DNA of 64,000 nt from positions 32,001-96,000 of IMG/VR virus record IMGVR_UViG_3300027896_000014. One strand, 5' to 3'. Shown in pieces: positions 14,473 through 49,871 of this stretch (its first letter is position 1; each line of letters starts with the position of its first letter). Origin of the DNA: a virus. Position numbers and translations under genes: made by a program. The notes below the pieces were generated by a model. That model had not been told where the DNA came from and ran no database searches. It was given only the letters and a program-made list of their open reading frames with translations.

Positions 14473-17400
14473 ATGGGTGTGTTTGACGAGTTTGGGACAG
14501 CAACCGAAAAAGAAGTAAAGCACGAAGAGAAAGTTCCCGGAAGTGTGTTCGCCGAATACGGGAAACCCGAAGGTCCTTCTCTTTTCCAAAGAGGCAAGGA
14601 AGCCGTCCGACAGCTTACCCAACCAATTCCACCGGAAGCATGGGGAGGAGAGGAAAAACCCGCTCATCCAGAATGGGGTACGAGGGCAGATGGGACTCCG
14701 AAGGGACCTGGATTCTTAGGAACATTAAAGAGGCCAGATGGAAAGATTTCAACTGAATTGTCTATCGGGGTAGAAATGGATGGGAAAGAAACCGAGATTC
14801 CCTCCCTTGTTCCTACGTTGACCAAAGATGAAATAGATCACCTTCTGAGTGGGGAAAAACCTACAAAACAAATTATTGATAAAGCCACTGAACATGCGAG
14901 AAAAAGAATCTCAGAGGGTAAGAGTCCATTTGCTCAAGAAGGTGAGCAACCTAAAAAAGAACCCCCTCTTCAACAACCCGAATTTGCCACTGGTCCAGCC
15001 GTACCCGCTCCAAGGGCTTTAGCTCCACTGCCAGAACCAGAGCCCAAGGGTCCCCTTGGAAGGGCTGCCAGAGAACTTAGACCAGCGATCCAGACCGTTG
15101 AAGACATTGCCTCTGTTTACGCACCCCTTGAGGCCGCTGCGAACCTTTTCTCCCAGACCTATGGTCTTGCTGCCACTGGAATAGCTCAACTCGTGGGGCT
15201 TCCTTTTGGTAAATCAAGAGAACTCGGAGAAGCCGTTTCTAAGGCAACCATTTATGAACCGAAAACTGAAGCCGGTAAAAGACTCACTAAGACAGCAGAA
15301 TACCCCTTTGAACTTCTTGATGTCGCCGGAGAAAAGGCGGCTGATATTACCAGAGAAATTACAGGAAGCCCCGCACTTGCTACCGGAGTTGGTACAGCAA
15401 TAAAGGCTGCCCCCCTTGCTCTTGGAGTGAGAAAAACTGCACTATCCGCTCTCAAATCGGTGACCGACTCAACCTGGTATAGAAGCCTTGCCATACCAGA
15501 GAGGAGCCTCGTTGTTCAATCTTTGGATGACATGATTTCTAAGGGGTTGAGCGAGGGCGAGATTCTGCGACGTTGGAATAACCCTTCTTGGAGAGAAGAG
15601 GCTTTAGCGAGGAGGATGAAGGGAGAAGCTCCTCCAGAAGCTCCCGCCGAGGCCGCACCGAAGCCAGAAGTCGCCGTCAAGCCCAAACCATCCCCTAAAG
15701 TAGAAGAGCCAGCTAAAATTAAGCCTTCAGAGACCATCAAAGAACGTGTCCCAATAGAGGAGCCAACCAAAGAAGAAGTTGCAAGAGAGCCTATGGCTGT
15801 GAAGCCAGGAGAGGCAGAAAAACCTGCACCCGAGGCCGAACATCTTCGACCAGCCATTATTCACAACGGTAAAGTTAGTGAAGGCGAAGTCGGTGGTACT
15901 CATCCAGACATTCTCGAAGCCCAAGACATAAGCCCAGAGGAACCGCATGAAAGGGGATTCATTTCTCCTGAAGGAAAGTTTCTTAGCCGGACCGAGGCAA
16001 AGGATTGGGTGAGAGAGAATCAGCCCAAGGTAGCCGAAGAATTGCAGAGACAGACCGGAACGGGTGAAGAACTCTACAGTGAACATTACAGGGAAGCCGC
16101 AGGGATTGAACCGGCAAAGGAAGAAGCAAAACCACTCGAACCCCCTAAAGGATGGACAACTGTAGTTCAGCCTACATGGAGAAAAACTCCAGGTTGGCAA
16201 GCCGAATTAGATTGGAAAGATAAGAGAATAGTTTTTGAGACTGAGGCCGATGCAAAGAATCCCGACATAATTAACCACGAAATTGGGCATATCCAACTTG
16301 AGGATAAATTAGGAGACGTTCAAAAACTTTCCGACAGTTCGCTTCTTGAAGAATATGCGAAGGTGAGAAATGAACCGAAAGATATGCACGTTAATTTTAT
16401 CAGAGAACACCTTGCCATGGATTATGGACAGTATTTAACAAACCCTGATGAGGTTAAGCCAGAATTAAAAACCTTATTTGATAAATATTTTCCAAAGGAG
16501 GTGCCAGATGCCGTTAAAGAAAGGGTCGAGCCAACGCACGATATCGGAGAATATCAGCGAGTTAGTAAGGGCGGGATACCCGGACGGCCACGGGCAGGCA
16601 GGGGCGATCGCATTCTCGAAGGCGGGGAAGTCCCGAAAGAAGAAGAAAAAAAAGTAAAAGAACCTTGGGAGATAACTCAAAGTGAGTATCTTGATGATCT
16701 ATTTGAAGGAATACAAAAGCCAAAAGAACTTGGAGTCGAGAAAAGAAGGCATAAGATAGCAGTAAATAAAGCCCTCTCCGAAGGTAAGCCCGTTCCACCC
16801 GAAGTTTTAGCCGATTATCCAGACCTTCATAAGCCTGCCCTTTCCCCCACCGCCAAAGATCAATATGCTCTCACAAAAGAATCCACCCGAGAAAGTCCTG
16901 CCGAGGTAAAACCTGGCGATTGGTCTAAAGGCGAATCCCGTCCCTTTGCCTTCGATCCGAACTCTACCGAGAATGAAGGTCGATTCAGACTCTACCCGCC
17001 TGAAGATATTAAACCAAACACTTACATAAGCCAAAAGGCAGTTAGGTCCAGAGGGATTGAACCCACTGAAGGTGTTCGATTTCTCTTGGCGGATGCTAAG
17101 GCAGGTGGTCGAGTTATTCAGGCCATTCGCTTTGATAAGTCCATTATGCCAGAAGAGAAGGCGAAAGATTGGTGGGAAGAAAATAAAGGGAAGTTTGAGT
17201 TTGGGGGAATTAAAAAAGAACAGGAAGTTAAACAACCAAGTTTTTTGAGTATTAAAAAAGAAGAAATAACAGGCAAGGAGGCCAAAGATGTTACTACATC
17301 GAACAGCAAAGAATGGAGTGACCTTTTTCTTCGAAAGCTCAGCACTGGAAGATCCGAAGTTCAGGGAATCCTTAAAGATCGCCTTGGAAAAGGATTCAAC

Positions 17401-49871: not shown

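Follow-up and report, generated by a model that had tools for sequence, protein, structure and literature searches.

We analysed a stretch of viral DNA 64,000 nucleotides (nt) long (the window), which comprises bases 32001-96000 of the 145,243-bp virus record IMGVR_UViG_3300027896_000014; coordinates labelled 'genome' refer to the whole record, and all others to the window. Two giant genes, A and B, lie on opposite strands of the window and encode proteins that share several blocks of sequence. A sequence-only reading had taken A and B for two injected proteins of one phage that recently exchanged domains. On the evidence below, A and B are probably counterpart giant genes of the polyvalent type from two temperate phages that are joined in this record, and their shared blocks are modules of the gene family. 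We call the part of the record that carries A P1 and the part that carries B P2. The genes and blocks, with lengths in amino acids (aa), are:

14473-20892, + strand: giant A, 2139 aa, an open reading frame (ORF) in the P1 structural module
42642-49871, - strand: giant B, 2409 aa, polyvalent-type, final gene of the P2 structural module
15475-15627, + strand: block 1 in A, a conserved N-terminal motif
48909-49061, - strand: block 1 in B, 97% identical in nucleotides to the related contig G002 and 64% to A
16832-16871, + strand: block 2 in A, one arm of inverted repeat I2
47377-47416, - strand: block 2 in B, the other arm of I2
16897-17226, + strand: block 3 in A (aa 809-918), predicted BRX-fold domain, containing the arm of inverted repeat I1 at 16912-16992
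44952-45263, - strand: block 3 in B (aa 1537-1640), predicted BRX-fold domain, containing the I1 arm at 45168-45248

Two giant genes share collinear blocks

Both giants lie among late, structural genes. Giant A sits after an internal virion protein gene (3476-5026, phrog_511) and before the tail-fibre genes. For giant B, domain searches returned LPD1 (PF18796, E 1e-19; 70.9 bits against a cut-off of 27) and phrog_616 (E 1e-47), and residues 1747-2155 are 31% identical, over about 400 aa, to LPD5-domain giants of Stx phages. An ortholog of B, P0006, occupies the equal place in G002. Domains of the polyvalent set (LPD, MPTase and others) were therefore found in B, while the translation of A contains HExxH motifs and no match to such a domain: Pfam returned BRX alone, and no LPD domain. 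The C-terminal half of A is 52% identical to the single 3994-aa giant of another contig, G001. Searches of A and B against PDB sequences with phmmer gave no matches, and Pfam gave almost none on ten large neighbouring ORFs.

At the start of giant B (aa 1-60, window 49692-49871), the first 50 or so residues recur at the start of a 472-aa ORF that follows portal 2 (genome 109373-110791; E 3.7e-5). The homologous 428-aa ORF of P1 (window 21136-22422) does not have this B-like N-terminal piece.

A repeat finder recovered two inverted repeats between the giants: I1 (16912-16992 and 45168-45248; 81 nt, 85% identity) and I2 (16832-16871 and 47377-47416; 40 nt, 90% identity). Within I1, our recount of 16921-16992 against 45168-45239 gave 64 of 72 identical positions, the first 29 nt being exact, in agreement with the earlier count. 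Exact inverted matches of at least 20 nt between the two parts of the record number just two (30 and 29 nt). At the protein level, BLASTP aligned block 3 of A with that of B at 59% identity (aa 809-918 with 1537-1640; E 3e-33), a longer N-terminal region that includes the core of block 1 at 34% (aa 243-501 with 178-438; E 1e-20), and the block 2 stretch (E 0.004). The blocks are collinear in A and B, and the remainder of the two proteins is unrelated, much as the sequence-only reading had described. Judged from the sequences, the blocks are homologous, because a 29-nt exact match in 64 kb is not possible by chance. They look like inverted repeats only because the two structural modules face opposite ways in the record.

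Three of the four blocks named earlier were thus recovered. The fourth (RPA..GK..G..H) was not significant when A was compared with B (BLASTP E 0.5); its support was transitive only, through another protein, P0020, for A 453-515 and B 661-720, and none for B 1453-1520.

The record contains two gene sets

An all-against-all comparison of ORFs in the record revealed paired genes: recombination modules, integrases, TerL, the giants and three further pairs. PHROG scans likewise found terminase, portal, integrase and phrog_399 twice each. The record therefore does not contain the one set of packaging and head genes that marks a single phage genome, but two TerL genes, two portals, two integrases and two RecT modules. 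The paired features that matter here are:

genome 17706-19253 and 120610-122220: TerL 1 and TerL 2, 57% aa identity
genome 100-5707 and 61241-66181: the two copies of a hydrolase/RecT/HNH/SbcC/HNH module
window 30266-31252, - strand: RecT-like annealing protein (phrog_148, E 3.5e-56), between A and B
genome 1534-2523: second RecT copy, 90% aa identical, outside the window
window 40517-41632, + strand: tyrosine integrase of P2 (phrog_1), with an ortholog at the equal position in G002
genome 11237-12421: integrase of P1, 21% identical to the P2 integrase
window 31500-32118 (genome 63500-64118) and genome 2769-3387: repeat S, direct copies

The recombination modules are direct repeats with 81% identity across 3 kb, and within them lies repeat S, in which 499 exactly matching nt (genome 2769-3267 and 63500-63998; window 31500-31998) are followed by one mismatch and another 119 exact nt. 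Repeat S spans the 5' half of an HNH endonuclease gene and the 3' end of an SbcC-like gene, and the modules around it are 56-94% identical outside that tract, which may have arisen by homing or gene conversion. It is the only link between the A-carrying and B-carrying parts of the record. An exact 49-nt pattern from within S had no match in viral or metagenome contig collections.

A second repeat, R, lies at the ends of the record: genome 1-127 equals 144991-145117 exactly, with 126 further bases after the second copy, and it closes the larger of two loops. Loop P1 (60,731 bp; genome 3268-63499 plus S) carries integrase 1, TerL 1, portal 1, giant A, tail fibres and lysis genes. Loop P2 (84,259 bp), the rest of the record, carries integrase 2, giant B, a second structural module, TerL 2 and replication genes. 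The sequence thus reads as a figure-of-eight, whose two loops meet at the 499-nt exact repeat within the shared RecT/HNH/SbcC module. The join could be either a product of the assembler, the exact repeat being longer than the k-mer, or a real crossover at S, and both fit the sequence equally. We also considered a simple tandem array in which two genomes share one att or terminal repeat. This was rejected because no third copy of the 127-nt repeat R was found at the other P1/P2 junction.

Within repeat R (genome 145036-145065 and 46-75, - strand), we noted a mini-ORF, MDDWWWWWW, with six successive Trp codons, a promoter-like TTGACA and a ribosome-binding site, upstream of a 175-aa ORF (144446-144973). 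It looks like a Trp-sensing leader peptide, as far as its sequence goes. Right after R, the last 126 bases of the record (genome 145118-145243) depart from the record start; a response-regulator-like ORF (VEDRILIVDDEE) begins in them, and they contain a promoter-like site. They may belong to a host flank, or the assembly graph may have a variant branch here. Small genes at window 26344-26787 and genome 124169-124654 form another pair, inverted between the loops, with 77% aa identity and a 30-nt exact match.

Relatives carry one giant each

In the viral collection we found one relative of A, on the 56.6-kb contig G001, and one of B, on G002 (88,038 bp, 94% complete). Each contig has one giant (3994 aa and 1690 aa, respectively) and one TerL region. 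Genome 61-139 kb and G002 are collinear; read through the ends of G002, the homologue of 139-142 kb leads into the hydrolase/SbcC module and then into the homologue of 66.5-72 kb, with no P1 genes between. Therefore, relative to G002, the whole P1 loop is an insertion bounded by S. Portal 1 is 37% related to portals of podoviruses with genomes of 55-63 kb, including Ralstonia phages and Stx phages.

These relatives bear directly on whether the record could be one genuine 145-kb phage with two ejection/tail modules and two giants. CheckV does rate the record 100% complete. Yet such a phage would have two terminases, portals, integrases and recombination modules, the 88-kb relative holds the P2 set only, and the relatives of portal 1 have much smaller genomes, so that we regard a single phage of this kind as barely credible. 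The claim that A and B are two injected proteins of one phage fails on the same grounds: there are two gene sets, their sole link is the 499-nt repeat, and the relatives have one giant apiece.

Comparison of related giants showed the same blocks beside different neighbours, and in this respect the mosaic character suspected from the window was borne out. Eight giants on different contigs have the block 1 motif. For A, this block is 54-62% identical to P0005, P0003 and P0011 but only 34% to B; for B, it is 83% identical to the giant of G002. For block 3, the closest relative of A is P0011 (76%) and that of B is P0003 (85%), against 59% between A and B. Of 14 giants, only A, B and that of G002 were found to have block 2, with near-equal nucleotide identity in all three pairs (34-36 of 42). 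Thus a recent domain exchange specific to A and B does not hold for blocks 1 and 3, which have closer relatives elsewhere. The sequence-only reading had itself named equal similarity of the blocks in unrelated phages as one half of what would refute it, and this half applies, since blocks 1 and 3 proved closer to outside relatives.

Giants of the B type vary most downstream of block 3, in a part whose length ranges from about 100 to about 2900 residues and whose domains differ (methyltransferase, SNF2 helicase, LPD1); a conserved tail of 40 residues follows it. In the giant of G002, block 3 is succeeded by an A-like segment (34% over 319 aa). The family is therefore strongly mosaic, with the shared blocks as its fixed points.

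Block 3 is a predicted BRX-fold domain

Block 3 behaves as an autonomous domain of about 90-105 residues. It was found in 161 representative clusters, 60 of them at E <= 1e-10, among 1.84 billion representatives, and its carriers range from stand-alone proteins of about 90-130 aa to giants of more than 5000 aa. Twelve other viral contigs with the domain have one copy each. A scan of block 3 of B against genome contigs found no relative.

The C-terminal half of block 3 matches the Pfam family BRX (PF08381), at 30.6 bits in A, above the gathering cut-off of 24.5, and at 23.6 bits in B, just under it. Precomputed PF08381 matches exist on nine related giants. An AlphaFold model of block 3 (pLDDT 78) had as its best PDB match the BRX domain of RLD2 (6L0V; probability 0.99, TM-score 0.66-0.71 on the target, 58 columns). 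The top three PDB matches were all 6L0V or 6L0W (probability 0.96-0.99, TM-score 0.65-0.71), with Foldseek E values of only 0.04-0.13. The predicted model thus has the same fold as the solved BRX domains. In the plant domain (PF08381; the RLD2 BRX bound to the LZY3 CCL peptide in 6L0V) and the phage domain, the motif RF(D/S)K...A..WW..N is common to both. The phage version differs in having an extra N-terminal half, W..G..RPF.FDPNST.NEGRFRL, which the 60-residue plant BRX does not have, and sequence identity between the two is about 22%.

No paper that links the BRX domain to bacteriophages turned up in a literature search, and the word 'BRX' is absent from the text of the survey of phage polyvalent proteins (Iyer et al., 2017; PMC5512222). 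The BRX-fold domain, of the Brevis radix/RLD type known from plants, is widespread in phage giants and in small stand-alone phage proteins, and in the giants it sits directly before their most variable part.

Most of the similarity between A and B is probably old

The age of the similarity was gauged from codons at positions where the residues agree: the fraction of them that are identical was compared with the expectation from codon usage. For TerL 1 and TerL 2, this fraction was 0.33 against 0.34 expected, which is saturated. Block 1 of A and B (13/31, or 0.42, against 0.31 expected; P 0.14) and the rear of block 3 (0.44 against 0.40) were also at background level. Two parts exceeded an expectation of about 0.34: block 3 in its first 27 codons (16/24, P 0.001), and block 2 (8/12, P 0.017). 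We then compared the first 25 codons of block 3 in 91 pairs from 14 loci, for which the background was 0.37; A and the G002 giant scored 0.52. The excess of synonymous identity is thus confined to a patch of about 75 nt, in which 10-12% of bases still differ and which is not clearly specific to A and B. So small a patch does not support a recent exchange of whole domains.

Several observations weigh against reading A and B as counterparts from two genomes whose shared blocks are family modules. In the patch, A and B share 16 of 22 codons (0.73, rank 2 of the 91 pairs), more than B and the G002 giant (0.57) and well above background, so that this patch may have been exchanged comparatively recently between these lineages. 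At window 28.4-29.2 kb the junction is without a repeat, and the assembler put out a single path. For A, the label 'polyvalent' comes from size, gene position and HExxH motifs and nothing else.

The first of these points could be taken further. A stretch of about 160 nt, from block 2 to the start of block 3, might have been exchanged fairly recently between the two lineages by gene conversion during co-infection, the other blocks being of old ancestry. The codon excess in both blocks, the high rank of the A-B pair and the restriction of block 2 to A, B and the G002 giant would all agree with this, and the 499-nt identical tract shows that these phages, or close kin, do recombine. However, 10-12% of the bases in the patch still differ, B and A each pair with the G002 giant above background as well, and the block 2 pairs are equally similar, so that a shared gene pool or nucleotide constraint fits equally; the samples, moreover, are tiny (12-24 codons). 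We consider this exchange rather unlikely, though it is the alternative to which we give most weight.

In contrast to the shared blocks, P1 and P2 are essentially the same over the 619 nt around the HNH gene. This near identity is a real and direct sign of recent exchange between two co-occurring phages.

An inversion between the giants is doubtful

The sequence-only reading went on to suggest that recombination between the inverted copies, with RecT encoded between them, would invert about 28 kb and swap the C-terminal halves of the giants. The position of RecT was confirmed. If both giants were on one molecule, the geometry for inversion would be right, and crossing over within the 29 exactly matching nt would interrupt neither frame and would yield chimeras of 1681 aa and 2867 aa. 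This part of the suggestion stands. A working mechanism did not emerge, given the short homology, the lack of an invertase and the orientation of the giant in G002. Among ORFs of at least 150 aa in the interval, scanned against PHROGs, there was no dedicated invertase, and the only site-specific recombinase was the phrog_1 integrase. The orientation of B relative to integrase 2 and the recombination module is the same in G002. Because this orientation is shared, it appears to be ancestral and not a product of inversion.

For inversion to operate, the record would have to be a real single molecule, either a P1::P2 cointegrate or nested prophages joined through S, in which recombination by RecT or RecA at the identical stretches of 29-40 nt occasionally inverts the 28 kb and swaps the C-terminal halves. 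The contig runs without a break, recombination at S would produce precisely the observed structure, and the record has two RecT genes; in addition to the open frames, related giants such as P0011 and P0006 flank the BRX-fold block with both A-like and B-like segments. On the other hand, the homology is very short and diverged, its longest exact run being 29 nt, whereas S, a direct repeat with 499 exact nt, would recombine far more readily, thereby resolving the cointegrate and separating the loops. Inversion would also scramble both genomes by mixing tail, lysis, recombination and integrase genes, and the inverted arrangement was not seen in any relative compared. We therefore judge this scenario very unlikely. 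No evidence points to either an inversion switch or a recent domain swap between A and B.

Neighbouring genes with internal repeats

A 573-aa ORF (54850-56571, phrog_10969) contains tandem repeats of 129 nt (three copies, 55187-55573) and 66 nt (three copies, 56100-56331), which are probably repeated small domains of a virion protein. Dispersed internal repeats of about 158 nt, with up to 93-95% identity, occur at window 5299-9266 in a 1721-aa ORF (5023-10188).

Two phage genomes and a mosaic family

These results serve chiefly to correct how the record is read. Although scored as a single complete phage of 145 kb, it reads as two phage genomes joined at an exact repeat, and therefore its paired giants, its paired tail modules and its long-range inverted repeats would be homologies between genomes. 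In the model that we favor, in which A and B are counterparts, the shared blocks would be conserved modules of a mosaic family, namely an N-terminal region, a short junction motif and the BRX-fold domain. By analogy with gp47 of phi24B, the giants would be packaged and ejected. The family would diversify when different phages enter one cell and recombine at the conserved blocks. A more elaborate version, which we think improbable, is that the BRX-fold block and the conserved C-terminal tail (YPLRPE.PSYLPPGLGR) serve as fixed anchors between which payload cassettes are swapped by RecT-type recombination among phages that share hosts, with P1/P2 as a real cointegrate that permits A/B chimeras.

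Comparison with known systems

The phage polyvalent proteins (Iyer, Burroughs, Anand, de Souza and Aravind, 2017; PMC5512222) resemble A and B in being giant and multi-domain, in being encoded among late structural genes and in having a domain make-up that varies between relatives. B carries LPD1 and is homologous to the LPD5-domain giants of Stx phages, and portal 1 is akin to portals of Stx and Ralstonia podoviruses. In contrast, most of A and B matches no described domain, and A is without LPD. One example is gp47 of the Stx phage phi24B, a protein of 2811 aa with LPD5, LPD1, LPD38 and MuF-C that was found in virions by proteomics and proposed as an ejection protein (bioRxiv 10.64898/2026.04.10.717836).

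The mosaicism of the giants has a parallel in other phage genes, in that conserved blocks are flanked by unrelated segments and recombined differently among relatives, and in that a recently exchanged tract is common to two co-occurring phages. Such mosaic phage genes recombine at short conserved sequences, as in the modular theory of phage evolution and in tail-fibre mosaics. In the giants, however, the conserved blocks would be folded domains within one reading frame and not intergenic linkers, and a recombinant of A and B was not observed.

Finally, programmed inversions swap C-terminal gene halves in the G segment of Mu (Gin), in phage P1 (Cin; not the loop P1 of this record) and in the R64 shufflon (Rci). 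Here too, inverted repeats lie within two convergent coding regions, and an in-frame exchange of C-termini is conceivable. In contrast to those systems, no invertase lies beside the repeats, which are diverged coding homology and not recombinase sites, and the 28-kb segment spans parts of two phage genomes and includes essential genes. The tyrosine recombinase within the segment is an ordinary phage integrase, found in the same place in the single-giant relative.

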